Assembly (NCBI GenBank): GCA_044378095.1
Contig: JBILXX010000005.1
Span: 55-64,054 of the forward strand
Length of the DNA stretch: 64,000 nucleotides
Reading direction: 5' to 3'
From: Polaromonas sp.
Lineage (GTDB): Bacteria; Pseudomonadota; Gammaproteobacteria; Burkholderiales; Burkholderiaceae_C
Of the stretch, positions 8,111 through 49,200 are shown piece by piece (positions within the stretch are counted from its first letter, which is position 1; each line of letters starts with the position of its first letter). The notes below the pieces were generated by a model. The model had not been told where the DNA came from. It saw only the letters and a program-made list of their open reading frames with translations, and did no database searches. Position numbers and translations under genes: made by a program.

Positions 8111-8173
8111 TTATATGTGTTTTAGTGCTTAAACCCAATGAATACGGGCGCAAGCAGCTCCTGTATAAATAGC
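8111..8173 (-). repeat. Dispersed repeat family A, copy 2
   Basis: Minus strand GCTATTTATACAGGAGCTGCTTGCGCCCGTATTCATTGGG. Confidence 0.9.
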
Positions 8174-28582: not shown

Positions 28583-30166
28583 TCAGTTCGGTAGCCGCAA
28601 ATACTGGTCGCAAAGCACCAAAAACGCGCCTAAAGCCGGGTCAACGCCGGTTTCCTGTTGCAAAAGCGCTGCAACGGGCGCTGCCAGCGATTTGGCCAGC
28701 GCGGCATCCAAAAACAGCAGGCGCGAACGCCGCGCCAGCACGTCTTCAACGGTTCTGGCGTATTCAAAACGGGCCGCAAAGCGCACCATCGCCTCAGTTA
28801 GACCGCCGCCAAGGTCTGTTTCAGCCCCAGGCGACGCCAGCACAGCCGCCGCCTCGCTGCCATACAGATGAATGCCCGGCGCGTCGCTGATGCCATGTTT
28901 TGTGACCTGCGCACCCACCAGTTTCAAATCAGTCGTCACGCCGGCCGGCTTGGCAGGCAGCAAATCAGCTGAAAAACACCTGTCCAGCACGTCCTCAGCC
29001 ATCGCGCGGTAGGTTGTCCATTTGCCGCCTGTCACGGTGACCAGCCCGCTTTTGCTGACCAAAATGGTGTGCTCACGCGACAAGCCTTTGGTGTTGTCGC
29101 CGTCATCGTCCGCAGGCTTGACCAGCGGCCGCAAGCCTACCCAGATGCTTTTGATGTCAGCGCGGGTTGGCGCTTTGGTCAAATACCGGGCTGACTCGTT
29201 GAGAATGAAGTCGACTTCCTCTTTAAAAGCGAGCGGCTCGCGCACCACGTCGTCCCTCGGTGTGTCTGTCGTACCCAAAATGGTTTTGCCCAGCCACGGC
29301 ACGGCAAACAGCACCCGGCCATCGGCTGTTTTCGGGATCAACATGGCGTGATTCATGTTGTGGCTAGCGGGCAAAAAGCTGCGGTCAACAACAATATGCA
29401 CGCCTTGGCTAGGCGCGACCATGGCTTTGACATCGCGGCCAATCGCTTTACCGTCTTCCATCCGGAACTGGTCAACCCACACCCCTGTGGCATTGATGAC
29501 CGACTTGGCTCTGATGTCGTAAGTCTTGCCCGTTTCAACGTCTTTCACGTGCAGGCCAGCCACTTTGCCGCCTTCGTGAATCAAGCCAGTCGCCGCACAG
29601 TAACTAATAAGCAATGCGCCTTTGCTTGCCGCCGTGCGAGCCAAAGCCAGCGCCAGCCGCGCGTCGTCAAACTGGCCGTCCCAGTACTTCACCCCGCCTT
29701 TGAGCTGCCCTCCAGGACCATTTTTTTTGCTGTTCGGCAGCAGCGCCAGGGTTTCGTCAGGGTTTAAAAACTCGGTCGCACCCAGCCCGGCTTTGCCCGC
29801 CAGCGCGTCATACATCTTCAGACCCACGCCGTAAAAAGGCGCTTCCCAAAACTTGTACGACGGCATCACAAACGCCAGCGGCTGCGCCAGGTGCGGCGCA
29901 TTGGCCAGCAGCGTGCTGCGCTCATGCAGCGCCTCGCGCACCAATGAAATATTGCCCTGCGCCAGGTAGCGCACCCCGCCGTGCACCAGCTTGGTCGCGC
30001 GCGACGATGTGCCCTTGGCAAAGTCATGCGACTCAACCAGCACGACAGAAAACCCACGCGCCGCAGCGTCCAGCGCCACACCCAGCCCTGTTGCGCCGCC
30101 GCCGATGACGGCAATGTCGTAGGTGATGGGGCGGGCGAGTTGTTCTATCAGTGATGCGCGGTTCAT
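28583..30166 (-). CDS. glpD: FAD-dependent glycerol-3-phosphate dehydrogenase
   Basis: IGGGATGLG, GTSSRATKLVHGGVRYL, GQFDDARL, GGKWTTYR. Confidence 0.95.
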   Translation of the reverse strand: MNRASLIEQLARPITYDIAVIGGGATGLGVALDAAARGFSVVLVESHDFAKGTSSRATKLVHGGVRYLAQGNISLVREALHERSTLLANAPHLAQPLAFVMPSYKFWEAPFYGVGLKMYDALAGKAGLGATEFLNPDETLALLPNSKKNGPGGQLKGGVKYWDGQFDDARLALALARTAASKGALLISYCAATGLIHEGGKVAGLHVKDVETGKTYDIRAKSVINATGVWVDQFRMEDGKAIGRDVKAMVAPSQGVHIVVDRSFLPASHNMNHAMLIPKTADGRVLFAVPWLGKTILGTTDTPRDDVVREPLAFKEEVDFILNESARYLTKAPTRADIKSIWVGLRPLVKPADDDGDNTKGLSREHTILVSKSGLVTVTGGKWTTYRAMAEDVLDRCFSADLLPAKPAGVTTDLKLVGAQVTKHGISDAPGIHLYGSEAAAVLASPGAETDLGGGLTEAMVRFAARFEYARTVEDVLARRSRLLFLDAALAKSLAAPVAALLQQETGVDPALGAFLVLCDQYLRLPN

Positions 30167-30180
30167 GTTTTATTCAGTCA

Positions 30181-30486
30181 TCACGCAGCCAACGCCAGCG
30201 GCTCAATCTCAGCTTCGATTTGCTTGGCTTTTTGCTTTTGCGTCACTTTCAGGTCATAGCTTTGCTGCAAGTTCAGCCACGACTGCGCATCGCCCCCAAA
30301 ATAGCGTGCCAGTCGAAGCGCGGTATCAGGGGTTACGCCGCGCCGCTCTAGCACGATGTCATTGACCCGCCCGGCGGGCACGTGCAGCGCTTTTGACAAC
30401 GCGTTGGCGCTCATTTGCAGCGGCTTTAAAAAGTCTTCCCGCAGTATTTCACCGGGGTGTACGGGGCGCATTCCGTTTGTGATCAT
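30181..30486 (-). CDS. higA: HigA antitoxin (Xre HTH)
   Basis: PVHPGEILREDF, RGVTPDTALRLARYF, WLNLQQSYDL. Confidence 0.93.
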   Translation of the reverse strand: MITNGMRPVHPGEILREDFLKPLQMSANALSKALHVPAGRVNDIVLERRGVTPDTALRLARYFGGDAQSWLNLQQSYDLKVTQKQKAKQIEAEIEPLALAA

Positions 30487-30515: not shown

Positions 30516-30794
30516 TCAGTGATAGTCAACAATTTCAACGTCAGCAGGGCCGTCAGCCGTCCAGACAAAGCACAGGCGCCATTGCTGATTGACGCGAATG
30601 CTGTATTGCCCCGCCCTGTCCCCCACCAGCAGCTCAAGGTGATTGCCGGGCGGTGACTTCAAAAACTCCAGCGTCACAGCGGCTGCAAGTTGTGTCAACT
30701 TGCGCTCAGCCACTTGTTTGATGTTGGCAAACTGCTTTGATTTGCCCGTTTCAAAAAGCTCCTGTGTTTGCTCGCACTTGAAGGACTGAATCAT
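30516..30794 (-). CDS. higB: HigB toxin (RelE superfamily)
   Basis: MIQSFK, PPGNHLELLVGDRAGQYSIRVNQQWRLCF, EIVDYH. Confidence 0.93.
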   Translation of the reverse strand: MIQSFKCEQTQELFETGKSKQFANIKQVAERKLTQLAAAVTLEFLKSPPGNHLELLVGDRAGQYSIRVNQQWRLCFVWTADGPADVEIVDYH

Positions 30795-30800
30795 GTGAAT

Positions 30801-30829
30801 ATTTTATACCGTTTGACGGTAAGCGGCAA
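30801..30829 (-). promoter_or_regulatory. higBA promoter TTGCCG-N17-TAAAAT with operator TACCGT-N3-ACGGTA in the spacer; predicted leaderless mRNA
   Basis: Read directly; -10 ends 6 nt before the higB ATG; no SD present. Confidence 0.7.
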
Positions 30830-30984
30830 CTCCGATGCGATGGCGCAGCAGCTTCAGTAAGGCGAGCAGCTCGCACGGCAAAAATTTTGCAGCCCAGCGC
30901 AGGATGCCGCTCAAAACGATTTGAAAGTGAACGAGACCTGTTTAGCGGGTTAAAACAAGTTTTGGGATTTATTTTGACTATTTC

Positions 30985-31046
30985 AAAGGCTATTTTTGGC
31001 CTTTTAGCCAACAAATACGGGCGCAAGCAGATCCTGAATTAATAGC
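30985..31046 (-). repeat. Dispersed repeat family A, copy 5 (overlaps the STAND-TPR stop codon)
   Basis: Minus strand TA|GCTATTAATTCAGGATCTGCTTGCGCCCGTATTTGTTGGC. Confidence 0.88.
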
Positions 31047-33428
31047 TAACTCAAGCCGTCAAGTGCTCGCCGTGCTGTCGCTAACTGCACGTCAAACGCG
31101 CCGGGGGTTTGTAGATTCACCTTTTCATACAAGGCTACCGCCTCTTTCGCGGCTTCTAGGGTGGCGGGGCGGTTGACAGTGTCACTTAAACAGCCTGCAA
31201 GGTTAAAGATGCTCATAGCTAAATCAGGCGTGTAGGCGACTGGGTTCGTTTCGGCCAAACGCCTGTAAATATCAGCCGCCTCTCGCGCAGCTTTCAGTGC
31301 GCCCGTATGGTCGCCGATTTCACCTAACCGGATTGCTAGGTTGTTGATGCCCCCTGCCAATAAGGGCGCGTATGCGGCTGGGTTCGTTTCGGCCAAGCGT
31401 CTATCAATCGCCACCGCCTCTTGTGCGGCTTTCACTGCGGCGCGGCGGTCGCCAGCTCCACTTAAACAGCTCGCCAAGTTGTTGATGCACATCGCCAAAT
31501 TAGGCTCGTAGGCGGCAAGGTTGGTTTTGGCCAAGCGCCTATAAATGGCCACCGCCTCTTGCGCGGCTTTCAATGCGCCGGGGCGGTCTCCCGTTTCGCT
31601 TAAAGAGCTGGCCAGATTGTTGATGCTCATCGCCAAGTCGGGCTCGTAAGCGGCGGGGTTGATTTCGACCAAGCGTCTGCGAATTTCCACCGCCTCTTGC
31701 GCAGCTTTCAATGCTCCTCGGCGGTCGCTAGTTGCGCTTAAATAACCTGCTAGATTATTCATGCTGATTGCCAAGTCTGACTCGTAGGCTGCGGGATTGG
31801 TTTTGGCCAAAGACCTGCAAATGGCCACCGCCTCTTGCGCGGCTTTGAGTGCGCCAGAGTGTTCTCCAGCTGAAGCCAAATACAAAGCATGATTGTTTAA
31901 TTGCGTTGCTTGTGCTGCGAGCTGATCAGCGTCAAGCACAATGCCATCAATTAGGGTGGCGGGCTTACTAATAGCAACAGCCAAATCAGCTAACGCCGTC
32001 CAGTTGGCCATGATTACAAAAGATCGTTTTAAACGGTTTGCAAAGTCTGAACCCGGCGCAGCTGCGTCTTGTAGCAACCCGGCCAGCGCAGCTGCATCTT
32101 GCGGCCTGCCCAGTTGCAAACGCACGGTTTGGTCATAAGCCTGCATGTGCCAGCGCTGTAGCGAAACGGTAACGCCAAACCAGTCAACTGGCGCAAGGCT
32201 GGCCAGCAGATTGGCATCAGTTGGCACGCCGCGCTTGGCAAGCGGGCTTTGCCAGTGCCACAGCAACACAGCCGCCAACAGGTCTGGCGCCAACGTCGGG
32301 TAGGTTTGGGTCAACTCATCAAGCGGCCAAACCTCTGCCAGTGCGCTGTGCAGCTTAGCCAGTGTGTTGGCGGGCCATTTGTAGGCATCGTTTAACTGGG
32401 TGTTGACAGCCGCCGCAGGCAAACCGTTGAGCAAGGTGGCAAAAGCCAGCACATCAGTCAGCACGCCTTTCGGCAGGCCGTGGCCTTCTTCGGCTTTTGT
32501 CCAACGGGCTTGCTCACGCGTGACGAGCGCTATCAGCAGATCCTTGCCGTTTAAAAACCGACGTGTTGGGTCTGGCGATTTTGACAAATGGATAGCCAGT
32601 GCAACGACGAATAAGGCGGTGCTGTGCAGTGGCGACTCGGTGAGCCATGCGTCAAAGTCTGCTTGACTCACGCTGGGAGCCGTGGGCGCAAGCCTGCTTA
32701 ACGACTGGGTGAGCAGGTTTAAGTTGCCTTTGCCTGCCAGCTCGCCCAGTGCCATGGGTGTGCTGGCGTAACTTTGCGCGCCTTGTTGGTTTAAAAGCGC
32801 ATTCACCCCTGCTGACAAACGGCAAAGCAGCAAAATGCGCAGCTTGTTTTTTTTGTTACCGGGTTGAATACCCTCTTTGGCCGCAGTAATCAATTGCGCC
32901 AGCCGCTCGGGCGAATGCTCGGGGTAGTCAACCACCACAATGGTGTTGCCCTGCCACGCCAAGCGCTGGGCTTGCTCAAATTTTGTCAAATTAACAAAGC
33001 CTCCCGCCCAGCGCTTGGTGTCAATCAGGCTTTGCGCAAACTCTGCGGCCAACCGCGTTTTACCAGTACCGCCGTCAGCCTGAATGACTTTAAAAGACAA
33101 TGCATGGTGCGAATTGGCCCAATCGCGCAGTTCTTTTTGTTCAGCTTCACGACCAATCAGCGGGGTCAGTCGGCAGCGCCAGTCCAGCCAAACGGCCTCC
33201 TTGCCTTGTGGGGATTCATTCCAGCCGATGGAGAGGTCAAAAGTTAGGGGTTTGCCGTCAATGGCGAGGCTGCTGGTGGTGGGTTTGAGTGAAAAATAGG
33301 CCACCGCATTGAGTACGACCGATAAGAAAAACCCAAAAGGCTCATAGTTGCCAGAAGGGTTACGCATCCACAGGACTCCCGTCAGCAAAAAAGCCAAAAT
33401 CAAAATCGATGAAACAACCTTAACCATG
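31046..33428 (-). CDS. 2TM - STAND-type P-loop NTPase - TPR repeat protein (NLR-like)
   Basis: Two N-terminal hydrophobic helices; LIGREAE; Walker A ADGGTGKTRLA; Walker B IVVVDYPE; LRILLLCR; six 46-aa TPR-like repeats. Start at 33428 or 33466. Confidence 0.8.
31100..31900 (-). repeat. Six tandem 138-bp (46-aa) TPR-coding repeats
   Basis: Anchor CCACCGCCTC-like at 31135, 31273, 31411, 31549, 31687, 31825 (138-bp spacing). Confidence 0.9.
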
Positions 33429-33535
33429 AGCGCCCCCCCCTGAGAGTTGAGTTTTTCTGGCTTCATGATACGTTGGCTTACACGGCTTGGGCAATGCGGA
33501 AACCGCATGAGAACGCCCCACAGGTTAGCCATTTT

Positions 33536-33595
33536 GCTATATTTTTAGGAGCTATTTGCGCCCGTTTTTATTGCCTTGCAGCCCTAAATGACAGG
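33536..33595 (+). repeat. Dispersed repeat family A, copy 6
   Basis: GCTATATTTTTAGGAGCTATTTGCGCCCGTTTTTATTGCC. Confidence 0.88.
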
Positions 33596-33689: not shown

Positions 33690-33755
33690 TTTTTACCCAT
33701 CCAGTTAGTCTCCGGCCCAATAGATTCGGGCGCAAGCAGCTCCTATTTATATAGC
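33690..33755 (-). repeat. Dispersed repeat family A, copy 7 (7 nt after glpK stop; inverted partner of copy 6)
   Basis: Minus strand GCTATATAAATAGGAGCTGCTTGCGCCCGAATCTATTGGGCC. Confidence 0.9.
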
Positions 33756-33762
33756 AGCTAAA

Positions 33763-35313
33763 TCACCCATCCGCCCAGTCCCCAGCCCGCGCTACTGCCT
33801 TGTGCCAGCGCGCCAGCTTGGCGGCCCTTGCCTCAGCGCTCATTTGGGGTTCAAAGCGGCGGTCAACTTGCCATTGGCTGGCGATTTCATCCGCGCCTGA
33901 CCAAAAGCCGACCGCCAGCCCGGCCAGGTAGGCTGCGCCCAGGGCGGTGGTTTCTGTCACTTTGGGCCGCACGACCGGCACGCCTGAAAAGTCGGCCTGC
34001 ATTTGCATCAGCAGGTTGTTGGCCGATGCACCGCCGTCTACCCGCAGCTCTTTGAGGCCAACACCTGCGTCCTGGCTCATGGCGGTGAAGACGTCTGCGC
34101 TTTGCAGGGCGATGGCTTCCAGGGCGGCGCGCGCAATGTGGGCGCGGGTTGTGCCGCGAGTCAGCCCTAACATCGCGCCGCGTGCATAGGGGTCCCAGTT
34201 GGGTGTGCCCAGGCCGGTGAAGGCGGGGACCAGGTACACGTCGCCGCTGTCGGGCACGGATTCGGCCAGCGCCTGTACTTCAGCCGCCGAATCAATGATT
34301 TGCAGCCCGTCCCGCAGCCACTGGATGGTGGCGCCGCCCATGAAGACGCTGCCTTCTAAACAGTAGGTGGTTTTATCAAGCTGCCAGCCCACGGTGCTGA
34401 GCAGCTTGTTTTTAGACGCCACGGGCTGGCTGCCGGTATTCATCAACATGAAGCAGCCTGTGCCGTAGGTGTTTTTGGCCATGCCGGGATTGAGGCAAGC
34501 CTGCCCGAAGGTGGCGGCTTGCTGGTCGCCCGCGATGCCTGCTATCGGGATGGGTGTGCCGAAAAGTGAGTGGCTACTTTCCCCCACCACGCCGCTGCTG
34601 GTCACAACTTTGGGCAAGACTGATGGCGGAATGTTGAAAAGCGCGAGCAATTCGTCGTCCCACTGCAAAGTGTGGATGTTGAACAGCAGGGTGCGCGATG
34701 CGTTGCTGGCGTCCGTCACGTGAACCCCACCTAGATGAGCGCCGGTCAGGTTCCAAATCAGCCATGAATCCATCGTGCCAAAGGCCAGCTCGCCTTTATC
34801 CGCCCTGGCGCGCGCGCCGGGTGTGTTGTCCAGCAGCCAGGCCAGCTTGGTGGCTGAAAAGTAGGCGTCGAGTACCAGCCCGGTTTTTTGCTGAATCAGC
34901 TCGGCATGGCCTTGGCTGCGTAACTCGTCGCAGCGGCCAGCGGTGCGGCGGTCTTGCCAGACGATGGCGTTGGCCAGTGGCTGGCCGGTGTTGCGGTCCC
35001 ACAGCACAGTGGTTTCACGCTGGTTGGTGATGCCGATGGCGAGTATTTCAGTCTTTGACGGCGCTATTAAATCAGGAGCTGCTTGCGCCCGTATTGATTG
35101 ATCTATAGGCCGATTTGATGCCTTTTTCAGGCAGTTTTGAGCGGTTTTGAGCTGACTTTGCCAAATTTCTTGCGCATCATGCTCCACCCAGCCCGGCTGC
35201 GGGAAGATTTGGGCAAATTCAGCCTGCTCCACCGCCACGACGGAGCCGGCGTGGTCAAACAGCATGGCGCGGCTGGAGGTGGTGCCTTGGTCTAGGGAGA
35301 GGATGTAGCGCAT
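33763..35313 (-). CDS. glpK: Glycerol kinase with a repeat-derived insertion
   Basis: [50 protein letters not shown]. Confidence 0.97.
35063..35125 (+). repeat. Dispersed repeat family A, copy 8, in frame inside glpK (antisense)
   Basis: GCTATTAAATCAGGAGCTGCTTGCGCCCGTATTGATTG; encodes [19 protein letters not shown] just before [13 protein letters not shown]. Confidence 0.9.
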
Positions 35314-37335: not shown

Positions 37336-38217
37336 TTATAACTGCGCAGCGTAAGTGGCGGCAATGCCCATGAACACGGTAAACCCCAGCCAGTGATTTA
37401 GCCTGAAAGCCTTGAAGCAATCGTCTCGCTGGCGCTTTCGGATCAGCCAGATATGCCACAGGGCTTGCGCCAGTGCCAGACCAATTGCTACTAAATAGAT
37501 AGCTTCTTGCGCTCGATTTAATTGACTTGAAAGCACATTCAGCCATATAAAAAGGTATAAAAAGTAACTCACGAGCACCGCCAGCACGTCAAAACGCCCA
37601 AAGGTGATGGCCGAGGTCTTCATGCCGATTTTCAGGTCATCATCGCGGTCCACCATGGCGTATTCGGTGTCGTAGGCAATCACCCAGAACAGATTGCCCA
37701 GCAACAGCACCCAGGCCAGCATAGGCACGCGCGACTGCACGGCGGCAAACGCCATCGGTATGCCAAAGCTGAAAGCCACGCCCAGCACCGCCTGCGGCAT
37801 GACCACAAAGCGTTTGGCAAACGGGTAAATGATGGCAATGCCTAAAGCGGCAAATGACCAGGCAATGGCGGTGATATTGGTCGTCAGCACAAGGCCGAAT
37901 GCGCAGAGCGCCAGCATCGCGCCCACCGCCAGCGCTTCTTTGGCGGGCAGCTTGCCGCTGGTCACAGGGCGCTGGGCGGTGCGCTTGACGTGACGGTCAA
38001 AGTCACGGTCGGCCACATCGTTCAAACAGCACCCTGCGCTGCGCATGAGGAACGTGCCCAAGGTAAAAACCACCAGCAAATGCCAGCTCGGAAAACCGTG
38101 TGACGCCAGCCAAAGCGCCGACAGCGTGGGCCACAGCAGCAGCAGCCAGCCCGCAGGGCGGTCCCAGCGGATGAGTTGCAGGTAGAGGTTCAGTCTGTTT
38201 TTCAAAAACGTGCTCAA
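37336..38217 (-). CDS. ubiA: 4-hydroxybenzoate polyprenyltransferase
   Basis: [43 protein letters not shown]; TTG start overlaps the res stop. Confidence 0.95.
37487..37540 (+). repeat. Dispersed repeat family A, copy 9, in frame inside ubiA (antisense, diverged)
   Basis: GCTACTAAATAGATAGCTTCTTGCGCTCGATTTAATTG; encodes [13 protein letters not shown]. Confidence 0.7.
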
Positions 38218-41200
38218 GTCACTTGCGCTAGCAAACCGTCCAGCGTCTTGGCTTTCACAAACTTGGCGGGGTTCTGGCCAGTTGCCACCGCCTCAAAATG
38301 CCGCACGCCACAGTCAATCTTGTCAGACTCGCCAGTGCGTAAGTCCAGTGTGACCAAGCTGCCTTTGGTCTCCACCACAAAGTACAACTTGTCTTGCCCC
38401 TCATGGTCAACCACTACTGCCCAGTCTGGGTTGTAGCCGCCAAGCGGCGTTGGGATGCTGAACCAGCTTGGCAGCTTCACATACAGCTTGACCGACTCAT
38501 TTTTCTCTAGTGCGTCAGCAAAAGTACGTTCAATCTCTGAGTCATACAGCACGCTTTCAAACACTGATTTCTCAGCCTTCAGCGTATTGAGGTAACCCAT
38601 CAGCTCGGCCGTTTCAAACAGCTCTTGTGCCCAAACATGCGCTTGACTGTCTACATCGCCCAAGCGGGTGTAGCGTATGCCGTCCACGATGGCGTGTTGC
38701 TTGTAACAGTTGATGTACTTCGCCGCCAAGTCAATAAACTGCTGCGGATTGATTTTGAAATCACCCAGCCGCCCGCTGCGCTGCAGCACATCGACCAGGC
38801 TGCGGCGCGTCAGTTGTGTGCGGTCTTGCAACTCGGTCAGCAGGTCAGGCAGGGGAATCGTCTCAGCCAAGGTTTCATGCACAGAGTCGCTGGTACCCAC
38901 TGCATCCACACCACCACGCCCAATTGACAAATCTGCCTTGCGAAAGCGCGCGCGGGTAGGCGTGACTTTGGGTGCTTCTTGCAAGGCTTTGACGCAGGTA
39001 TCCAGCAACTTGGCATTGTCAAACGCCACGCGGTAAGTGGTGCGGTGCTTGATGCGGTCCCACAGCGCTTTGAAGTCAGGGCTTAAATACACCTCGCGGC
39101 GCAGTGCAATGGGTTTTTTGTCGTCGGCGTTTTTAATGTCCAGCTTGCCCGCCAGTTTGCGCAGGCGGTCAATGATCTGAACCTTCCATGCTTCCAACTC
39201 CAATGGGATGGGTACCGTGCCGTCTTTCAGCGCCTGGCGCAATCCGTCTTGCACTTTGCCAGCCGCATTGATCAAGCCCAAAGATTTCAAATGCTGGGCA
39301 ATGGCTTCAGAGCGCTCCGCGCCCAACACATCAGCATCACCATCCGCGCCAGCCACGGCCAACTGTGCAAAGGCATGGCCTTCGACCACACCAAAGCGTA
39401 TGCCGGTCTCGGCCTCCATTTCTTTTTGCAGTTTGTCGGCAAAGTCTTCATAGCTTTCGTTGGCAATCACGGTGAGTGTGTTCACCTCAAAGCCGCGCAG
39501 GCGTTGGCCGGTTTGGTCCACGCACAGGCGCAAGCCACGGCCAATGGTTTGGCGGCGCTCGCGCTCGGTGTTGATCTCGCGCAGGTTGCAAATCTGAAAC
39601 ACATTGGGGTTGTCCCAGCCTTCGCGCAGAGCAGAATGCGAGAAGATGAATTTGAGCGGCGTGTCAAAGCTCAACAAGCGCTCTTTGTCTTTCATGATCA
39701 GGTTGTAAGCTCGTTCTGCGCTGTCACGACCCGTTTGGTTACTTTCACCTGTGTCTGTCCAGCCGCCTTTTTTGTCGATAGAAAAGTAGCCGTCATGTAC
39801 GCCGCTGGCGGGGGCACTTAAATCGACTTCTTTAAACAAGCTGTTGTACCTGCTGGACTTGGCATAGGCCGTGTATTCCTCTTCAAACATCTGCGCAAAC
39901 TTGCCCTGCGCGGCAACACCATTGTCGCTGTACTGGCGGTAGTTGGCCACGGTGTCGATAAAAAACAGGCTCAGCACCTTGATGCCTTTGGGCCGCAAAC
40001 GCAGCTCTTTGTCCAGGTGCTCGCGAATGGTGCGCTTGATCATCATGCGTTTGATGGCGTCGTCGTCTACATCGCCTACCGCCTGACCTACTGTCAGTTG
40101 CTCTTCCCCGCCCGGAAATCGCAAGTCCAGGTACTGCGCACCTGTTTTGGCGCTGAATTCGCCCACCACGTAGTTGGCGTACATGGCATTGTTGGTGACC
40201 TGCTGCAAGTCATCGTCCACCCGCACTTTTTTAGCCATCCGTTTGATGCTGCCCGTTTTAGACTGCACGTCCAGCTCCACCTCGGCCACCGGTTTTTTTG
40301 CCTCAAAGCCGACACCCAGAAGCTTCACATACGGCTTGTTATGACCACCTTGAATATCCAGGCTGGCCACTTCAATTTGTTTGACCAGCTGCCGCTCATA
40401 CGCGTCCACCGCGTCCAGCTTGTAGACCATGTGGTGCTTGGTGGCATGGGTGGCTGAATAGCGCAGGGTACACAGCGGGTTCATTTCGCTAAGCGCTTGT
40501 TTGCCCTTGCCGTCTTTGCCACCGTCCACGCTTTGTGGCTCGTCCACAATCACGATGGGGCGGGCTTGGCGAATCAGCGTGATGGGGCTCTCACCGCCCG
40601 TTTTTTCGCTGTCTTTGTAAACCACCGCATAGTCTGCTCGGGCAATCGACTGAATCGTCATCACCATGATCTGCATGTGCGAACTGGTTGCAAAGTTACG
40701 GACTTGGCCTAGTTTTTTAGAGTCATAAATAAAGTAATCAAACGGCACACCCGCGTACAGCGTTTTAAAGTGCGGCGCCATGATTTGCAGGCTTTTGTAC
40801 ACGCCTTCTTTGATGGCCACCGACGGCACCACAATCACAAACTTGGTAAAGCCAAACTTCTGGTTCAGCTCAAACAGCGTGCGCAGGTAGACATAGGTTT
40901 TGCCGGTGCCGGTTTCCATTTCTACCGTGAAGTCGCCTGACTCCAATGTGGGCGACAGCGCCAAGCCGTTGCGCAGTTGCACCGCGTTCAGGTTTTTAAG
41001 CAAGTCGTCGTCCAGCAGGCTGAGCCGGTTGCCAATACCCAGCTCGCTTTCAGCCAGCCCCAGACCCATTTGCTGCTGCACCACCTGCCCTGCAAGGTCG
41101 ATGCTTTGGCCATAGCCCGGCGCACTGTGACTGACGGTAAATTCAGTCCGGCACAGCTCTTGGCCCATGAAGAGGCCACACACCGCGTCAATGGCGGCGC

Positions 41201-41237
41201 GCTGGTAGTCCAGGTTGTGTTCAAACTGAAGGTTCAT
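38214..41237 (-). CDS. res: Type III restriction enzyme Res subunit (SF2 helicase plus PD-(D/E)xK nuclease)
   Basis: [50 protein letters not shown]...VETKG. Confidence 0.93.
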
Positions 41238-41291
41238 AGCTTGTACTTGTTGTGACTTTGAACGCTTTCCAAAATGGAAGCAGTTGCATGG

Positions 41292-42320
41292 TCATTTGGC
41301 AGGTTTCGGTTTTGACAGCAGCTTTGTGGTCTGTACCAGCGACTCAATCGACGTGCCGTCCGCTGCATTTTCAAGCTGCGCGCGGCGTTGTTCGGCAAAT
41401 TTATCGTATTCGGCATGCGCTTTTGCCAGCGCTGCTTTGTGGCTCACAGCCCCAGCGTTGCCCAACACGTTGCGGTCGTTAAACGCCAAAAACGCATCAA
41501 GCCGCTCGTTCCAGTGCGCTAAAAACACCTGCTTGCGTCGCAGCGCCTGGTCTTCTGCAAAGTCCAGCCACATGGTGACGATGCGGTTCAGCTCGGTCAC
41601 TTCCGCTTCATGCAGGTAGTTTTTGGCTACCGTTACGTCTGCTTTGTTCAGCCACTGCCCCTTCCAGCTTGACAAACCCATATTCGGTTGCGTTGCGTCT
41701 ACCCGGGCGGTGATAAGCTCTGCCGCCGTTTGGCCAGTCACTGCAAAGTGCAGCTTGTTTTGAATCACCCGAAAAAACGCGGTGGTCTCTGGCAAGCTGG
41801 GCTCATAGTCCGCCGCCAGCGTGAAAATTTCACGCACCCGCAGGTACATGCGTCGCTCGCTGGCACGTATGTCACGCACACGGTCAAGCATTTGCGCGAA
41901 GTAATCAGGTGCCGCGTTGTCTGCAACGGGCGGGTTTTTAAGCCGCTCGTCGTCCATGGTGAAGCCTTTGAGCAAGTACTCACCCAGCCGCTCGGTAGCC
42001 CAGCGCCTGAACTGCGTGCCGCGTGCGGACCGCACGCGATAGCCCACCGCCAGCACCATGTCCAGGTTGTAGTGCTCTACATCACGCTCTACATTGCGGC
42101 CGCCCTCAGATTGAACTGTTCGGAATAGCCGAACAGTTGCCTCAGGGCTTAGCTCGCCTTCCTCGTAAATGTGTTTGATGTGCTCACTAACCGTCCCTTT
42201 TGCTTTGCCAAACAGTTCTGCAAGCTGCTTTTGGCTAAGCCACAGGGTTTCGCCATCCAGCGTCACGTCCAGTCGCGTGCGCCCGTCGTCGCTTTGAAAA
42301 ATTAAAAATTCACCCATCAC
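41292..42320 (-). CDS. RhuM-family DNA-binding protein
   Basis: ETLWLSQKQLAELF, HYNLDMVLAVGYRV, FRRWAT, RDIRASE, KNYL. Confidence 0.9.
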   Translation of the reverse strand: MMGEFLIFQSDDGRTRLDVTLDGETLWLSQKQLAELFGKAKGTVSEHIKHIYEEGELSPEATVRLFRTVQSEGGRNVERDVEHYNLDMVLAVGYRVRSARGTQFRRWATERLGEYLLKGFTMDDERLKNPPVADNAAPDYFAQMLDRVRDIRASERRMYLRVREIFTLAADYEPSLPETTAFFRVIQNKLHFAVTGQTAAELITARVDATQPNMGLSSWKGQWLNKADVTVAKNYLHEAEVTELNRIVTMWLDFAEDQALRRKQVFLAHWNERLDAFLAFNDRNVLGNAGAVSHKAALAKAHAEYDKFAEQRRAQLENAADGTSIESLVQTTKLLSKPKPAK

Positions 42321-44458
42321 AAGCTCCGCACGTCCTCCAGCCCGCGCTGGCGCAGGATGGCGGTTAGGTTGGTTTTGGCGACATCTCCGTCAAACAGGCT
42401 GTCGCGCAGCACCACGCGGGTGTGCAGCTCGGCCGGGGTTTGGCCTAAAGTGGCGGCCAGTTGGGTGTGCCAGTCGGCTATGCCCAGGGCCAGCGCCTCG
42501 GCGTTGGCGGCTGTGACGCTGGCTTCAAGCATCGCACCTTTTTCGTCGCCGTCCCGGGCCAAACACACCAGCAGAGCCCCAGCGCCCACGCTGTGTACCG
42601 TGTGCCCGGCAATCACCTGGCGCTGCACGGGCAAGGCCAGGTCCAGCCCTTGTTTGAGCAGCACTTCATACAGCACGTCCGCCTCGGTACGGCCAGCGGC
42701 CAGGTGCTCGGTGTGCGCCATCAGCGTGTCGGCCAGCTCATCGGGGTTGGGGTTCCAGGCGCGGATGTTGGACGTGTCGAGCTTGAAGACCTTGAAGCCC
42801 AAATCGAGTGGCTTTTGGGGCGTTTTAGCCTCATTTTCAAGGCTTAATTGGGCTGTAGCCGAATCATGACGGGCGTAAGCAGCTCCTATTTTTGTAGCGG
42901 CGCGGCGCAGGCGTTCTTTGGTGAGTTCGGCGATGTTGCGGGGTTTGCCGATGGAATCGCAAAAATCAGCCGCTACCTTTTGATCTTTGTTTTCAATGTC
43001 TAACGCTTCTGGGAGTTGAACCAGAATGAAGCGTCGTCCAGCGCGCTCTGTTTCATTTTGCTCAAAAATAGCGTGACCGGATGTACCAGAACCTGCAAAA
43101 AAATCCAACACCAGATCGTCAGGACCACAAATGTAGCTAACGAGTTTTTTCAAATCGTCTAGAGGTTTTGGATTATCAAAAACTCTCTTGCCTTCAAAAA
43201 GTGCGTTAAATTGATTTGCAGAGTTCTGCGCGTAGCTGTAGTGAACGCTGACCATTACTTGATCGCTGTTTTCAAACAAATTCGTTCTTACTCTCGGTAC
43301 GGTTGTTTCATCAACGCCAAACACGATTCGGCCATTTGCCACCTCTTCCCAGAAACGATTTGGATTTGGGTATCGCCATCCACTTACGGGCAGTTTGCAT
43401 GGTCGGTTTGTGGTGGGATGCAGAACCTCGTAAAAAGGGCCACCACCGCCAGGCCAGTTAATATTTCCGTCGTCGCGAAACGGCCCTTTTTCGTCAACTT
43501 TTGTGAATCGTTTTAACGGTGCACGTTCATCTTCGTCTGTTATCAAAGCGTAGTAGTCAGAAAGCCCCTGCCGAATGCTCGGCCAATCGTTGCCGTGAAG
43601 ATTTACAAGCCGGACAAACTCTGCTCTTACTTCTTCAACCCCTTCCTTTTGACCTCTGAAAATTATTTGGTTTTCTTTTAGTAACGCTTCGTTCTTAAAG
43701 TAAACAAGCATGTACTCATGTCCAACAGAAAAATATTTTGCGTCATTTTTTCTGTTTCTATCCCACACAAGACATGCAGCGAAATTTTCCTCCCCAAATA
43801 CCTCATCCACAACACGGCGGATGTTGTGCATTTCCGCATCATCAATGCTAATAAAAATAACCCCATCCTCCCGCAACAAATTCCGAGCCAACTTCAACCT
43901 CGGATACATCATGTTCAGCCAGTCCGTATGAAAGCGCCCGCTGGCCTCGGTGTTGCTGCTGAGCTTGCGGCCTTCGCCGTCCGTCTGGCCGGTCAGCTCC
44001 AGGTAGTTTTTAATGTTGTCGGTGAAGTTGTCGGGGTACACAAAGTCTTTGCCGGTGTTGTACGGCGGGTCGATGTAGATCATCTTGACTTTGCCGGCGT
44101 AGCTTTTTTGCAGCAGCTTTAAGACTTCGAGGTTGTCGCCCTCAATCATCAGGTTTTGGGTGGTGTCCCAGTCCACACTCTCGCCGGGGCAGGGGCGCAA
44201 GGTGCCTGTGCTGGGGGTCAGCGCAATTTGCCGGGCGCGGCGTTTGCCGTGCCAGTTCAAACCATACTTTTCCTCCCGCTCATCGACTTGCCCACCCAGC
44301 AGTTGTTTGAGGACCTCAAAGTCAACGCCGCCTTCTTTGAAGGCCTCGGGGAACAGGGTTTTAAGCTGGGCCAGGTTGCCTTCCACCACGTTGGCGCTTT
44401 GGGTGTGGGCGGCGTCTAGCGGGGCAATCACGCTGGCTGAGCTTGATGATGTGTTCAT
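42317..44458 (-). CDS. mod: Type III R-M Mod subunit (N6-adenine DNA methyltransferase, beta arrangement)
   Basis: YGLNWHGK, IEGDNLEVLKLL, motif IV IYIDPPY, motif I LDFFAGSG, GFKVFKLD. Confidence 0.93.
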   Translation of the reverse strand: MNTSSSSASVIAPLDAAHTQSANVVEGNLAQLKTLFPEAFKEGGVDFEVLKQLLGGQVDEREEKYGLNWHGKRRARQIALTPSTGTLRPCPGESVDWDTTQNLMIEGDNLEVLKLLQKSYAGKVKMIYIDPPYNTGKDFVYPDNFTDNIKNYLELTGQTDGEGRKLSSNTEASGRFHTDWLNMMYPRLKLARNLLREDGVIFISIDDAEMHNIRRVVDEVFGEENFAACLVWDRNRKNDAKYFSVGHEYMLVYFKNEALLKENQIIFRGQKEGVEEVRAEFVRLVNLHGNDWPSIRQGLSDYYALITDEDERAPLKRFTKVDEKGPFRDDGNINWPGGGGPFYEVLHPTTNRPCKLPVSGWRYPNPNRFWEEVANGRIVFGVDETTVPRVRTNLFENSDQVMVSVHYSYAQNSANQFNALFEGKRVFDNPKPLDDLKKLVSYICGPDDLVLDFFAGSGTSGHAIFEQNETERAGRRFILVQLPEALDIENKDQKVAADFCDSIGKPRNIAELTKERLRRAATKIGAAYARHDSATAQLSLENEAKTPQKPLDLGFKVFKLDTSNIRAWNPNPDELADTLMAHTEHLAAGRTEADVLYEVLLKQGLDLALPVQRQVIAGHTVHSVGAGALLVCLARDGDEKGAMLEASVTAANAEALALGIADWHTQLAATLGQTPAELHTRVVLRDSLFDGDVAKTNLTAILRQRGLEDVRSL
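42815..42898 (-). repeat. Dispersed repeat family A, copy 10, in frame inside mod (sense)
   Basis: GCTACAAAAATAGGAGCTGCTTACGCCCGTCATGATTCGGC; encodes ATKIGAAYARHDSATAQLSLENEAKT. Confidence 0.85.
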
Positions 44459-44498
44459 AGTTGACAGGTTGTTTTTTTAATCTGTGCGTTGTGCTGTT

Positions 44499-44531
44499 TT
44501 CAATAGTCCGCCCAGTGGGTGGACTATTGAA
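44499..44531. other. Long hairpin between the toxin gene and mod
   Basis: TTCAATAGTCC-GCCC-AGT-GGGT-GGACTATTGAA, about 15-bp stem; no adjacent U-tract on either strand. Confidence 0.7.
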
Positions 44532-44553
44532 GGAAGGTCAGACAAGGTGCGCT

Positions 44554-45018
44554 TCAGGTGGATTGGTTGAGCAGTTCTTCGATGCTTTGCGGCACGATGC
44601 CTTTGGCGAGCATTCGGCCAAAGGTTTCGTAAACATCGGTTTTTGAACCCGCTTTGCGCAGAGTGTCCTCATCGTTGAACCAGACATAGACAATGAGTTT
44701 GACGGGGCTGGAGGCATAGCGAAAAAACAGGCGGTAGCGGCCGGGTAAGCCTTTTTTGACTCTGCGCCAATGGGCGTTCGTTGAAGCTGCGGTGCCTAGC
44801 GTCTTGCCAAGCCGAAATTCTGGCGCTGCGGGGTTGGCGGGCACGGTTTGGCTCATGGCTTTGAAGATGGAGGCCAAGAGTTTGGTTTTAGGGTGGGTTT
44901 TGTAAGTGCTAGGCTCGCGCTGAGCAAGCTGGGAGACGAAGCCTTCCAGCTCGCCCAAGGCAACTTGAAAGGCGCGGAGCTTGAAAATTTGCCATCCGTT
45001 GACTTGCATGGCGATCAA
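44554..45018 (-). CDS. YhaV-family toxin (RelE-superfamily RNase)
   Basis: VNGW, KTKLLASI, EFRLGKTLG, WRRVKKG..RYRLFFRY, IVYVWFNDEDTLRKAGSKTDVY. Confidence 0.88.
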   Translation of the reverse strand: MIAMQVNGWQIFKLRAFQVALGELEGFVSQLAQREPSTYKTHPKTKLLASIFKAMSQTVPANPAAPEFRLGKTLGTAASTNAHWRRVKKGLPGRYRLFFRYASSPVKLIVYVWFNDEDTLRKAGSKTDVYETFGRMLAKGIVPQSIEELLNQST

Positions 45019-45335
45019 TCAACCTCAACGCCTTCAACCAAAGCGGCAATTCGAGCCCATTGTGCGGGGTCAGCAGGCACGATTTGCTCAGGATGGGCGG
45101 CCATTTGAGCTTCTAAAAAGCTCAAAAAACTCTCCATCACGGGGTCTATCTCTGGCTTGGCGGCTTTGCTTTTGGCAGCGGGCTGCGCGGAGATGAGCAC
45201 CTGGCCATCGGCCACAAAGGTGGCACGTACTTTGCCGCTGAACTCGGGGTGGGCATTAAAAAACCCCGCTGGCAGGCGCATGCCGCGGCTGTTGCCTACC
45301 TGAACGACGGTGCCCTCGTATTGGGTGGTTTGCAT
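45015..45335 (-). CDS. AbrB/PrlF-like antitoxin
   Basis: AbrB-type VVQVGNSRGMRLP; C-terminal DPVMESFLSFLEAQM...LVEGVEVD resembles PrlF; overlaps the toxin start. Confidence 0.82.
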   Translation of the reverse strand: MQTTQYEGTVVQVGNSRGMRLPAGFFNAHPEFSGKVRATFVADGQVLISAQPAAKSKAAKPEIDPVMESFLSFLEAQMAAHPEQIVPADPAQWARIAALVEGVEVD

Positions 45336-45420
45336 GGTGGTTTACCTTTGATGTAGATACAAGTGTGATCACGCATGTTATCCCAGAAACTAGGACTTGC
45401 CCCGCTGTTGATCATCCCGC

Positions 45421-46287
45421 TCAAAGGTGGCCTAGCAAAGCCTGGCGCTCGGCCATGAGTTTTGCAATTTGGACATTGAGAGCGGCGCGTTGGCCAAGCT
45501 GGCTTTCTTTGCGGGCCTGGGTGCGCAGGCTGGCCAGTTGTTGGCCCAGCTGGTCGTAAGCGGCCAAAGAACTGCGGCGCTGGGCGGCGTGTGGTGCGCT
45601 GGGGCTGACGATGAACTGCCCGGTGTGTTCGGCTGCGGCCAGCGCTTCAATGGCGTGCAGCCAGTCGTTGTAGCGGGCATACAGGTCCCGACATTGACGT
45701 AGTGGGGCGCTGGCGCCTTGATTGAAGGCTAAATATTGAGAAAATTGGCCAGCAGCCCCCGCTCTATGTGCGCGAGCAGCTATTGATTTAGTAGTAACCA
45801 CTTGCTCCAGCACCATGGCGCTGCCTGTGCCCAGGCTAAGGCGTTTGTGGGCCAGGCTGAGTTGTTCAGTGCCGCCGTCAGCCCCGTTATGCGCGCTGGG
45901 CTGGCTGACGATGAGGACAACCGGGTAGGGAATGGTGCGGTGAATGAGTTCAATGAGCCGGGTCAGTTGTGCGCTGCCGCGCGAGGCTGACTTGGAAGAG
46001 CTGTGGCGCAGAACCGCGTGCAACACAGCAATCTCCAGATAGTCATGGGTGCCCGTTTGCCACACCGCCAAGCCGCAGGTGGCGGGCTTCAGAGCTGCCA
46101 GCCAGTGCAGCTCGGCCAGCAACTGATTGACGAGCCGCTTGTCTGCCGCTGTGCTGCCGGGCAGATTGGCGATTTGCTCTATGAGCAGTGTTTTGGCGAT
46201 GCGCTGGCCCACGCAGGCACTGGCGGGTAGGGCCAGGGCTTGCACCAGCGCGGGGGCTTGGCTGAATGGGTTGGCCGCCTTGGTCAT
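45421..46287 (-). CDS. DUF4391-family protein
   Basis: WLAALKP, DYLEIAVL, IHRTIPYPVVL, SLAHKR, C-terminal coiled coil KESQLGQRAALNVQI; ATGA overlap with the helicase. Confidence 0.82.
   Translation of the reverse strand: MTKAANPFSQAPALVQALALPASACVGQRIAKTLLIEQIANLPGSTAADKRLVNQLLAELHWLAALKPATCGLAVWQTGTHDYLEIAVLHAVLRHSSSKSASRGSAQLTRLIELIHRTIPYPVVLIVSQPSAHNGADGGTEQLSLAHKRLSLGTGSAMVLEQVVTTKSIAARAHRAGAAGQFSQYLAFNQGASAPLRQCRDLYARYNDWLHAIEALAAAEHTGQFIVSPSAPHAAQRRSSLAAYDQLGQQLASLRTQARKESQLGQRAALNVQIAKLMAERQALLGHL
45730..45795 (-). repeat. Dispersed repeat family A, copy 11, in frame inside the DUF4391 gene (sense)
   Basis: ACTACTAAATCAATAGCTGCTCGCGCACATAGAGCGGGGGCTGCTGGCCAATTTT; encodes TTKSIAARAHRAGAAGQF. 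Confidence 0.8.
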
Positions 46288-49200
46288 GGCGCGGCGGGCA
46301 GCACCGCCAGCCAGGCCACCACTTCAAAGTCACCCATACCTGCAAATTCACCCGCCAGGGCGTGGGTGCCGCCAGGGCTGAACAAACTGGCGGCGGCGCG
46401 CTCTTGGCTTTTGCCTGCAATGGATGCAATGGCGGCGGCCAGCAGTTGCTGGGCGTGTGTCATGTTTTGCCCGCCTTTGGTTGACTTGTCAAACTGAGCG
46501 TGGGCGGCCATGTCTGGTGCAGTGCGGCCAAGCGCCAGGCGTTTGAGCTGGTCAAGGATGCGCTTGGCTTGTGGGTAGGGCAGCAGCACGGTGCCGTCTG
46601 CGCCAACCTTATCGCCGACGTGAACCAGGTAGTGGGGAGCCAGCGGGTAGCTTGGGTCTTGCCCAGTGTCTGGCCGGACAGAACGCAGGCAAAAGATGAT
46701 GCCGGGGGCAATGTCTGCATCTAGCGTGGTGGTGACGGCAAAGCTGCCAAGCGGAAGCTGCGGCAAAACGTCTGGATTCGCTTTGTTGTACTCCGCCAGG
46801 TCAATGCGAAAGTCGGTCAGGGTGAGGTCGGTAATGGCGATGCCGCTCCCCAAGTCCTCCAGATCAATCACGCTGGTTTGCATTTGAATCAGCTGGGCGC
46901 GGCGGTAGGCCAGGTCGTTCATGGGGTCGCCGGACTGTTGTTCAATCAGGTTTTCTTCGCCGGTGGCAGATATATCCAGCAGCACCATGCGGCCGCTGAC
47001 GCGCTGCTCAAGGTTGATATATTCCTCCAGCTCAATATTGGGCCAAAAGTTAACCAGCTGAATGGCGCTGTTGGGCGAGCCCAGGCGGTCAATGCGGCCA
47101 AAGCGCTGAATGATGCGCACCGGGTTCCAATGGATGTCGTAGTTGACTAAAAAGTCGCAGTCTTGCAAGTTTTGGCCTTCGCTGATGCAGTCGGTGGCAA
47201 ACAGCAGGTCAATCGTGCCCTCACTGGCCAGCTCGGCGGGGCGCTCTTTGGACTGGGGTGAAAACGCCGTCAATATATTGCCCAAGCTGCGCTGCATGGG
47301 CAGCGTGGTTTGGTTGTGGCCTGCACCTGTGACCAGGGCGGATTCAACATTTAGCTCTGCTTTGGCCCAGTCTGCCAACTGGGCATACAGGTATTTAGCG
47401 GTGTCTGCAAAGGCCGTAAAAACAATGATTTTGCGATTGCCCGCATTGAACGGGTTGCGGCATTTATCGGCAATCAAAGCTTGCAGCTTGAGCAGCTTGT
47501 CGTCTCGCGCGGCGCTGACGCTGGCGGCTGCAGCGCTTAAGGTGGCTAAGCGGTTGCGGTCTTCCGTCAGGTCTTGCCGCCAGCGTATCAAATCAACATC
47601 GCCTAGCAGTACCTTGACTTTGCGGCCCACCAGCAATGCCTCGTACGCAGGGTCTTCAATATCAATGTCGTCAATTTCCAGCTCATCAACCTCGACTGCT
47701 TTGGCATCGATGCGGGCGAGGATGCTTTCTACATCACGCAACTGGCGCTGCACGGTGAGGGTGAAGGACGACACAGAGCTTTCCATGCGCTTCAAAACAT
47801 TGACGCGCAGCAGGTGAATCAAGCTTTCTTCACGGTCTGCCTGGCGAAAGTAGCCTTGGCCACCGCGCAGCTGGGTGCTGTATTTGGCGTCATACGCTGC
47901 TTGCTTGTGCGGCAGTACGTAGCGTAATGGCGCATACGCGGCCAGGTTGAGGCGGCGGATCTCCTGGTTAATGTCGCGAATGGAACGGAACTCGCCGGTG
48001 CGGTCAACATCGGCTTTGATGTTGATGGGCGGCAAGCGATCTGGGAAGCGGCCTGTCTCTGCTGTACCGTAGTATTTTTCAATGTGGCGGCGTGACCGGG
48101 CAATCGTCAGGTGGTCTAGCAGGCTGAAGTAGTCAAAGCCCAGCATGTCAATGAGCAGCGCGGGGGTCTTCTCCTCTGCGGGAAGCGCTAGCCAGCGGTT
48201 AAAGGCTTTTTGCGCTCGGCGCGTGGTGCTGTCTATGCTGGCGATACCGTGTGGCGACAAAGCGGTGTCGTCACCCTCCGTCACGAAGGCAATTTGGTTT
48301 TTAAGGTCGTTCAAGCGGTTATTGACAGGTGTCGCCGACAGCATCAGCACGCGGGTTTTAACGCCTTCGCGGATGATTTTGCGCATCAGGCGGTCGTAGC
48401 GCGTTTCGCGGCCTTTGTTACTGGCTTTGTTGCGAAAGTTATGGGACTCGTCAATCACGACCAAATCGTAGTTGCCCCAGTTGACGTGCTGCAAATCAAT
48501 ATCACCCGACTGACCCGCGTCGCGCGACAAGTCGGTGTGGTTGAGCACGTCAAAGTTAAAGCGGTCTGCCTCTAACGCATTGCGTTTGTCGTTGGCTTTG
48601 TACAGCGCCCAGTTGTCTCGCAGGCGCTTGGGCACCAGCACCAGCACGCGGTCGTTACGCAGCTCGTGGTACTTGATGATGGCGAGGGCTTCAAAAGTTT
48701 TGCCCAGGCCTACGCTGTCGGCCAAAATACAGCCGCCAAAACGGTTGAGTTTGTCGATGGCAGCCACCACGCCGTCGCGCTGGAATTTATAAAGCTTTTT
48801 CCAAACTGCTGTGTTGCGAATGCCGGTGGAGGCTTTGACGATGGCGTCTTCGTCCAGCGCATCGTTTTTAGAAGCGAAAAGATGGTGAAGAATCAGGCTG
48901 TAGATGCTGGTTGGGTCGCGCTGCACATACAGCGCCTTAACGCTGGCTATAAGCTGGGCTTTGGCGTCGGGCTGGTCCTGCAAGGCAGCCCATTGTTGGT
49001 TAAACCACTGGCTTAAATTTGTTGCCTCTGCGCCCGTGTCTGACTGTTGAATCAAGCTGAGCGGATTGCCGGGTGCCATGCCCAGACCGTCGGTGGTGAA
49101 AGCAAATGCGCCCAAAACGGCCTGCTGCGCTTTGCCGTCACCGTCGCGTAGCACCAAAGTGCCCTGGGGAATGCTGCCTTTAGCCTGGCGTACTTCGGCG

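Follow-up and report, generated by a model that had tools for sequence, protein, structure and literature searches.

What does a gene encoding two transmembrane (TM) helices, a nucleotide-binding module, and an array of tetratricopeptide repeats (TPRs) do between the glycerol-catabolism genes glpK and glpD of a Polaromonas genome? The gene lies in a 64,000-nt stretch of DNA (herein the window) from Polaromonas sp. (GCA_044378095.1, contig JBILXX010000005.1, positions 55 to 64,054 of the forward strand). Based on its sequence, the predicted structure of its product, and analogy with known systems, we think it fairly probable that the protein is an all-in-one abortive-infection receptor of the STAND type, resembling the nucleotide-binding proteins with leucine-rich repeats (NLRs), which would be anchored in the inner membrane by a two-helix (2TM) hairpin and would disrupt that membrane. 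NLR-like receptors embody an immune principle common to bacteria, fungi, plants, and animals; the coupling of sensing to killing is known for few bacterial families. NLR-like conflict systems with membrane-directed outputs are already known, and the window gene is a variant of these.

Architecture of the window protein

The window holds a single uninterrupted reading frame at 31046-33532 on the minus strand. An earlier note on this DNA had described a gene for two TM helices, an NTPase, and a TPR sensor at 31046-33466; the open reading frame (ORF) and this layout are borne out, with all quoted motifs present in the translation, but the start at 33466 probably is not. The closest homologs (P0003, P0004, and P0008) and P0002, the 793-residue database cluster representative of the window's own protein, begin at a Met equivalent to M36, so the gene probably starts at the ATG at 33427, downstream of a G-run; translation is unlikely to begin at either of the in-frame ATGs farther upstream (33466 and 33532). 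Residues labeled P0001 follow the longest-frame numbering (Table 1).

A model of the N-terminal 525 residues was generated with AlphaFold2 (AF2) from a 46-sequence alignment (mean predicted local distance difference test [pLDDT] of 90.4; predicted template modeling score [pTM] of 0.85). Both N-terminal hydrophobic stretches are helices in this model and form a hairpin; the RNPSGNYEP turn that joins them is predicted to face the periplasm. Against Pfam, the hairpin matches no SLATT family at E ≤ 0.1 and gives no Bell match either. The nucleotide-binding motifs that follow are strongly conserved across 46 diverse relatives. Within and around GGTGKT (Walker A), no variation is seen at G, G, and K or at the Arg next to GKT, and very little at the G in front of them and the L behind; VVVDYPE (Walker B) has an invariant D and a Y-P-E conserved at ≥90%. 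The Arg that ends LLLCR, a motif we take to be comparable to the hhhTTR of NB-ARC proteins, is likewise invariant. The C-terminal sensor consists of six TPR repeats in register, each of 46 residues (276 residues in total), with a 138-nt periodic repeat in the DNA; Pfam TPR_10 matches it in five stretches (E = 4.6e-28). The repeats are near-identical, and homologs differ by gain or loss of whole repeats.

Foldseek matches of the model at E ~1e-5 comprise ORC/Cdc6, the plant NLRs NRC2, NRC3, NRC4, and Sr35, Avs5, SAMD9, Apaf-1, and MalT; for the nucleotide-binding oligomerization domain (NOD) module, VIA and Foldseek return NB-ARC, Apaf-1, NLRC4, Avs5, and MalT. Z scores are 14.3 for NRC2 and 14.1 for the NB-ARC of NRC1 (277 residues each), 13.8 for Apaf-1 (287-343 residues), and 13.2 for NLRC4 (340 residues). 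For proteasomal and Clp AAA+ proteins the Z scores are of similar height, but the matches cover only ~210 residues. As the NLR-type matches span the nucleotide-binding, helical, and winged-helix domains, the predicted fold, unlike that of plain AAA+ proteins, extends to the further domains that STAND proteins have after the nucleotide-binding one. Judged by this model the NTPase is STAND-like, as the earlier note had supposed, and the protein has the other features of the superfamily: Walker A and B motifs with a sensor-1-type Arg, a NOD module, a C-terminal repeat sensor, and a variable N-terminal output domain.

Curated families were searched for the same module. In Pfam, the AAA_16 and nSTAND_NTPase5 matches of the window protein both fall below threshold, the latter (PF25199) with 17.3-17.9 bits (E = 0.003-0.004) against a gathering cut-off of 34 bits. 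Weak matches across the 46 relatives are to AAA_16 (43), nSTAND5 (19), ATPase_2 (18), NPHP3_N (6), nSTAND3 (6), and NB-ARC (2); the 19 nSTAND_NTPase5 matches are at E ≤ 0.01, with a best value of 1.8e-6. This is the best specific Pfam neighbor of the window family, and actinomycete PF25199 proteins with trypsin-like or TIR N termini and TPR_10 C termini were recovered as distant homologs; the window protein differs in belonging to a sister or outlier group and not to the curated family itself. PADLOC v2.0.0, with models for Avs1-5 and bNACHT (a set that excludes the newer Avs7-21 models; PMC13581612), gave no match for the window protein at E ≤ 0.1 and none at E ≤ 0.001 for the NTPase module of six diverse relatives. 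An NCBIfam scan of the protein returned nothing useful, and a profile search of PDB sequences found generic P-loop matches only. Since the nSTAND5 score lies below its cut-off and PADLOC gives no match, the protein is not a classical Avs or bNACHT, in agreement with the earlier impression from the Walker B variant.

Avs/AVAST and bNACHT proteins are STAND NTPases that act against phages (Lee et al. 2026, PMC13581612; Kibby et al. 2022, bioRxiv 10.1101/2022.07.19.500537). Like them, the window protein has an N-terminal candidate effector, a STAND NTPase, and a C-terminal TPR-like sensor, and its NOD model resembles Avs5 and NLRs; by analogy, ligand-induced oligomerization would be expected to activate the effector. 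It differs from them in its lack of a PADLOC match, its hhhhDYPE Walker B signature, its sensor of only six TPR_10 repeats, and its bare 2TM hairpin.

Exchange of the N terminus and origin of the hairpin

With E-value limits of 1e-3, 1e-10, and 1e-30, a profile of the NOD region retrieves 5266, 1432, and 184 cluster representatives, respectively. The N termini of the best 149 representatives were surveyed, with TM segments called by a crude hydropathy filter. Non-TM N termini of 13-70 residues, rich in G/N/Q/V/I, account for 122 of the 149, and most family members carry a beta-prone N terminus of ~40 residues in place of helices. Long domains are present in 12, one of them identified (P0093, TIR_2 at 5e-22); 10 show one hydrophobic segment, 1 shows two (P0004, from the window's clade), and 4 are truncated or very short. 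Because their second helix lies just under the filter threshold, P0002, P0003, and P0008 were counted among the 10; the window's clade (these three and P0004) is the only one among the 149 to have the 2TM hairpin. In relatives at a greater distance the N terminus can be TIR-like (L015) or trypsin-like (L022 and P0040). The family comparison shows that the N terminus is an exchangeable output position, swapped among TIR domains, trypsin-like domains, a short amyloid-like motif whose partner is a small membrane protein, and 2TM hairpins, and lends independent support to its description as the effector position. The hosts encountered are Proteobacteria and Acidobacteriota, mostly as metagenome-assembled genomes (MAGs); a scan of metagenome contigs with the family alignment gave no confirmed locus. 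In a Bryobacterales MAG (L018:2620-5295) and in Dactylosporangium siamense (P0048), a 2TM hairpin is fused independently to the N terminus of a related STAND-TPR protein; the turn of the former, YPEGLQGRE, is loosely like the NPSGNYEP of the window protein.

The predominant architecture is a gene pair. Directly upstream of the receptor, and on the same strand, a small gene without a Pfam match was found in 14 loci examined. Among the close relatives without a hairpin it encodes 90-119 residues and lies 3-13 nt upstream in seven of seven loci (P0024, from Limnohabitans, is outside the set of loci with gene context), and an equivalent gene is present in seven more distant loci (L013, L014, L016 [Rhodopila], L019, L020, L065, and L066). 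Across these relatives the small proteins measure 86-150 residues and have no significant Pfam match; each has a hydrophobic helix and then a basic segment, the beta-prone motif, and a polar linker, to which a second hydrophobic helix is added in all except L020.

The motif of ~20 residues, rich in G/N/Q/V/I, is common to the small protein and the N terminus of the adjacent receptor. In local alignments against composition-preserving shuffles, all 12 pairs tested scored above the shuffles (z of 4.2-15.9; at most 8 of 2000 shuffles reached the observed score). There are at least four motif classes; partners match inside a class and not across classes, so that the motif co-varies between the two genes, and L066, for example, reaches a score of 88 with the protein it is paired with, against no more than 31 with the rest. 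Basic residues mark the cytoplasmic side of membrane proteins (the positive-inside rule). Those that follow the first helix of the small proteins therefore place the motif loop, presumably, in the cytoplasm and within the receptor's reach. A complex prediction for the L060 pair (receptor residues 1-60 with the small protein), run without controls, scored 0.00 and weighs neither for nor against the pairing. In one member of 664 residues (P0142), a hydrophobic helix and motif are followed in a single polypeptide by the receptor's matching N-terminal motif and the NTPase; it lacks the second helix of the small proteins and represents the two-gene system in read-through or fused form, unless it is an artifact of gene calling or of a frameshift.

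Against this background the hairpin appears as a later development. In a tree of the NOD region, from which N termini had been removed, the three 2TM proteins group together (support 100/99), nested in the motif-bearing two-gene forms and sister to P0010 plus P0017; at the level of sequence, the tree shows the 2TM-fused proteins to be one derived lineage within the two-gene forms. The hairpin clade has no beta-prone motif, there is no small upstream gene at the window locus or in L011, and the window's genome contains no homolog of the relatives' small protein. The nested clade, lacking both motif and partner, is thus a derived all-in-one form whose helices are joined directly to the receptor rather than recruited through the motif. 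The similarity scores of the window's 2TM N terminus against the relatives' small proteins and N-terminal motifs are indistinguishable from those of shuffles; MAFFT aligns the FGFF of helix 2 with the MFGFF start of the relatives, which is not significant. The hairpin may have come about by fusion, replacement, or de novo extension. The hairpin and its turn are kept among clade members 64-70% identical (86% for the partial P0008) on different contigs and in different contexts, and conservation at this identity implies purifying selection on the new N terminus.

Bell/BASS-NLR gene pairs signal through amyloid motifs and occur both as two genes and as all-in-one NLR forms (Bell, HeLo), and a motif shared by NLR and effector is the genomic signature that defines amyloid signaling sequences (Dyrka et al. 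2020, bioRxiv 10.1101/2020.01.06.895854); the amyloid-coupled Bab/Agp pair (BASS11) mediates abortive infection in Escherichia coli (Ibarlosa et al. 2024, bioRxiv 10.1101/2024.11.07.622273). The window's relatives resemble these pairs in combining a STAND-TPR receptor with a small membrane-targeting protein, encoded 3-13 nt upstream, that has a co-varying motif in common with it, and in both systems two-gene and all-in-one forms exist, the window gene being of the latter kind. The differences are several: the NTPase of the window family is neither NB-ARC nor NACHT; the relatives' effector is not the Bell five-helix bundle, its motif occupies the loop that joins two hydrophobic helices and not the C terminus, and amyloid formation is putative; the hosts are Proteobacteria and Acidobacteriota, as opposed to the filamentous Actinobacteria and Cyanobacteria of BASS pairs; and the window protein has neither motif nor partner. 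We found no description, in the literature searched, of a STAND-TPR family with a predominant two-gene, motif-coupled architecture. It is conceivable, and we put it forward tentatively, that the window protein is a fused, motif-less offshoot of a large STAND-TPR family using a new kind of amyloid-type relay, in which the beta-motif of the receptor would template the cytoplasmic loop of a tiny two-helix protein and polymerize it within the membrane.

In this family one sensor-NTPase chassis has two membrane wirings: direct fusion of a hairpin, as in the window, and a co-evolving motif with a separate mini membrane protein. If the amyloid-type relay is real, nature has built one receptor in two corresponding forms, one working by relay and the other by direct fusion. 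The two wirings offer a handle on two questions, namely whether induced proximity of TM hairpins suffices to kill and whether amyloid-type templating operates in the plane of the membrane. Defense catalogs would also gain a family that, with no PADLOC match, they now miss.

Proposed mechanism and competing explanations

For the all-in-one receptor we propose a topology in which the N terminus and the NOD-TPR body would be cytoplasmic and the NPSGNYEP turn periplasmic. The six-repeat TPR domain would bind the trigger, most likely a protein of a phage or other invader; binding would free the NTPase module for ATP binding and oligomerization, and oligomerization would bundle the hairpins of several protomers, so that the membrane may be perturbed or perforated and the infection aborted. 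Of this scheme we infer the antiviral role, the nature of the trigger, the oligomerization, and the action of the hairpin as an effector rather than a mere anchor. The funnel of plant coiled-coil NLR resistosomes and the 2TM effectors of other bacterial defense systems are parallels. Because the two-gene relatives pair the receptor with a small TM protein, gene content suggests that the membrane is the target of the family's output. SLATT proteins are 2TM pore-forming effectors in nucleotide-signaling defense systems (cited in Kaur et al. 2020, PMC7159879). By analogy, the window protein would share with SLATT-type effectors a two-helix membrane module as killing output that is activated by induced oligomerization; it differs in having no SLATT match and no nucleotide-sensing domain, and activation would come through fusion to an oligomerizing NTPase. 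CBASS and Pycsar systems also use TM effectors.

An immune function is supported by the accessory nature of the insert, the adjoining toxin-antitoxin (TA) genes, the island of Type III restriction-modification (R-M), SNF2, and YhaV genes 5-16 kb away, and the repeat plasticity of the sensor. Several observations weigh against it. The 276-residue sensor is short, the defense-associated sensors clustered in PMC13581612 having at least 400 residues; no PADLOC model matches and no curated family reaches its cut-off; and the gene is not embedded in a defense island, since its immediate neighbors, glpK and glpD, are housekeeping genes. Neither the small membrane proteins of the relatives nor any known pore-forming domain shows detectable similarity to the hairpin, and beyond the turn there is no strong conservation of its helices, so that it could be a plain anchor. 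In that case the protein would be a membrane-localized STAND sensor or scaffold whose output passes through a partner, for example an unlinked effector or HigBA. The minimal size of the hairpin (~46 residues with a nine-residue turn), its lack of Pfam, SLATT, or Bell matches and of similarity to the small proteins, and the co-inserted HigBA 250 nt downstream fit such an arrangement, which we nevertheless regard as unlikely: elsewhere in the family the N terminus carries recognized output modules or an output-coupling motif, and no partner gene is conserved beside the three 2TM-clade members with context (the window, L011, and P0003, the last on a short contig). Where relatives have TA modules next to them, these also come from other families (HI1420-type/CcdAB and Unstab_antitox), and this difference argues for a shared islet habitat rather than a functional link.

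The absence of both motif and partner gene from the window, together with the small size of the clade (four cluster representatives), could alternatively mark an evolutionary leftover that lost its coupling, gained a hydrophobic N terminus by chance, and no longer signals. We hold this to be improbable to a greater degree, given that the ORF is intact and keeps every family-invariant residue, that hairpin and turn bear the mark of purifying selection described above, and that 2TM N termini arose independently elsewhere (L018 and P0048). Still less probable, in our estimate, is a STAND switch without immune function, which would serve at the membrane as a regulator or assembly factor for an endogenous signal, comparable to MalT and AfsR-type STANDs in transcription. 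In the superfamily tree (PMC13581612, with 589 STAND clades), those with and without a defense role are intermingled, the best Pfam match, AAA_16 (43 of 46 members), covers regulators too, and the gene sits inside a glycerol-catabolism locus. Yet Pfam finds no DNA-binding or enzymatic output domain in the protein, the family includes TIR and trypsin-like N termini and cell-death-type motif pairs, neighbors vary at every homologous locus, and the gene is missing from all 24 congeners searched, one of which has a glp locus without it.

The glycerol locus, its repeats, and its neighbors

The gene, glpK, the HigB-like toxin and helix-turn-helix (HTH) antitoxin genes, and glpD were located as the earlier note had placed them, all on the same strand, with higBA ~250 nt downstream of the NLR-like gene (Table 1). 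The congener G015 has a GlpK of 74% identity, and a spacer of 277 nt without the NLR-like gene or higBA is all that separates its glpK from glpD; the window therefore holds a 3.6-kb insert composed of these genes. The sporadic occurrence seen among congeners is the opposite of the broad vertical conservation that would have spoken for a housekeeping role. TA genes lie immediately downstream of the family member in two homologous loci, and their family differs among the window (HigBA) and these two: an HI1420-type antitoxin partner with CcdAB in L009:3927-6306 and Unstab_antitox in L010:5305-5538. Between the defense island and the NLR-like gene lie ubiA, proC, a phytase-like gene, and glpK; the best PADLOC match of the island's SNF2 helicase is the HKD+Snf2 model (4.5e-114). 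An ORF of 91 codons just downstream of the NLR-like gene (30751-31026, minus strand) is probably spurious: it has no Pfam match, is Arg-rich and of low complexity, and overlaps the repeat and the higB start.

Table 1. Features of the NLR-like gene and its surroundings (window coordinates)
Feature	Position	Strand	Basis or remark
Whole gene, 793 aa + stop	31046..33427	-	ORF and translation; likeliest start M36
TM helix 1, P0001 V37-M56	33365..33424	-	Kyte-Doolittle mean 2.2-2.45 over 17 residues; AF2 helix 2-22 (793-aa numbering), pLDDT about 78-83
Turn RNPSGNYEP linking both helices	33338..33364	-	W-x3-P-[SD]-G-x-[YF]-E-P kept in P0002, P0003, P0004, P0008
TM helix 2, P0001 F66-L82	33287..33337	-	Hydropathy mean 1.88; AF2 helix 29-44
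NOD module: pre-P-loop helix (LxWRxRL...GR..E...L..WA), nucleotide-binding domain, helical, winged-helix, further helical domain	31913..33190	-	AF2, Foldseek, VIA, weak Pfam
Walker A GGTGKT, P0001 154-159	33056..33073	-	Translation
Walker B VVVDYPE, P0001 199-205	32918..32938	-	Translation; family signature hhhhDYPE
LLLCR, P0001 234-238, sensor-1-like Arg ending a beta strand	32819..32833	-	Translation; AF2 strand 196-202
Sensor: six tandem 46-aa TPR_10-type repeats, few variable positions each	31073..31900	-	Pfam, repeat register, 138-nt DNA period
Repeat copy just downstream of gene	30994..31049		Inverted relative to upstream copy
Repeat copy just upstream of gene	33533..33588		Inverted relative to downstream copy
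Further repeat copy	33718-33755
Repeat cores in window	6653, 8145, 10415, 31018, 33547, 33727, 35074, 42870, 54651
glpK	33763-35313	-	Neighbor
HigB-like toxin	30516-30794	-	Pfam HigB-like_toxin 1e-15
HTH_3 antitoxin	30181-30486	-	Pfam HTH_3
glpD	28583-30166	-	Neighbor
Defense island: Type III Res, RhuM, Mod, YhaV toxin, DUF4391, SNF2 helicase	38214-49487	-	5-16 kb from NLR-like gene

The bracketing of the gene by repeats that the earlier note had reported is real, the two nearest copies forming an inverted pair, and four copies fall inside 4.1 kb around the insert. The repeat core, AGGAGCT..TTGCGCCCG, lies inside a unit of ~45-75 nt. The window contains 9 copies of it, where 0.07 would be expected, and the 3.5-Mb genome contains 280, many of them close to the ends of contigs. 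Neither an Rfam match nor a significant fold was obtained for the repeat. As ends of a mobile cassette the repeats are ruled out by their 280 genomic copies, by a diverged copy in the empty glpK-glpD spacer of G015, and by their absence from all homologous loci elsewhere. They are a host-specific dispersed element that accumulates around the insert, not a boundary that travels with the gene. One copy (35063-35100) lies in frame inside glpK, where it adds 19 residues (GlpK 65-83) that are not present in the congener's GlpK and leaves the frame open. Another two, at 8145 (minus) and 10415 (plus), flank an OLD-like ATPase/TOPRIM gene and are inverted with respect to each other, as are the two that surround the NLR-like gene.

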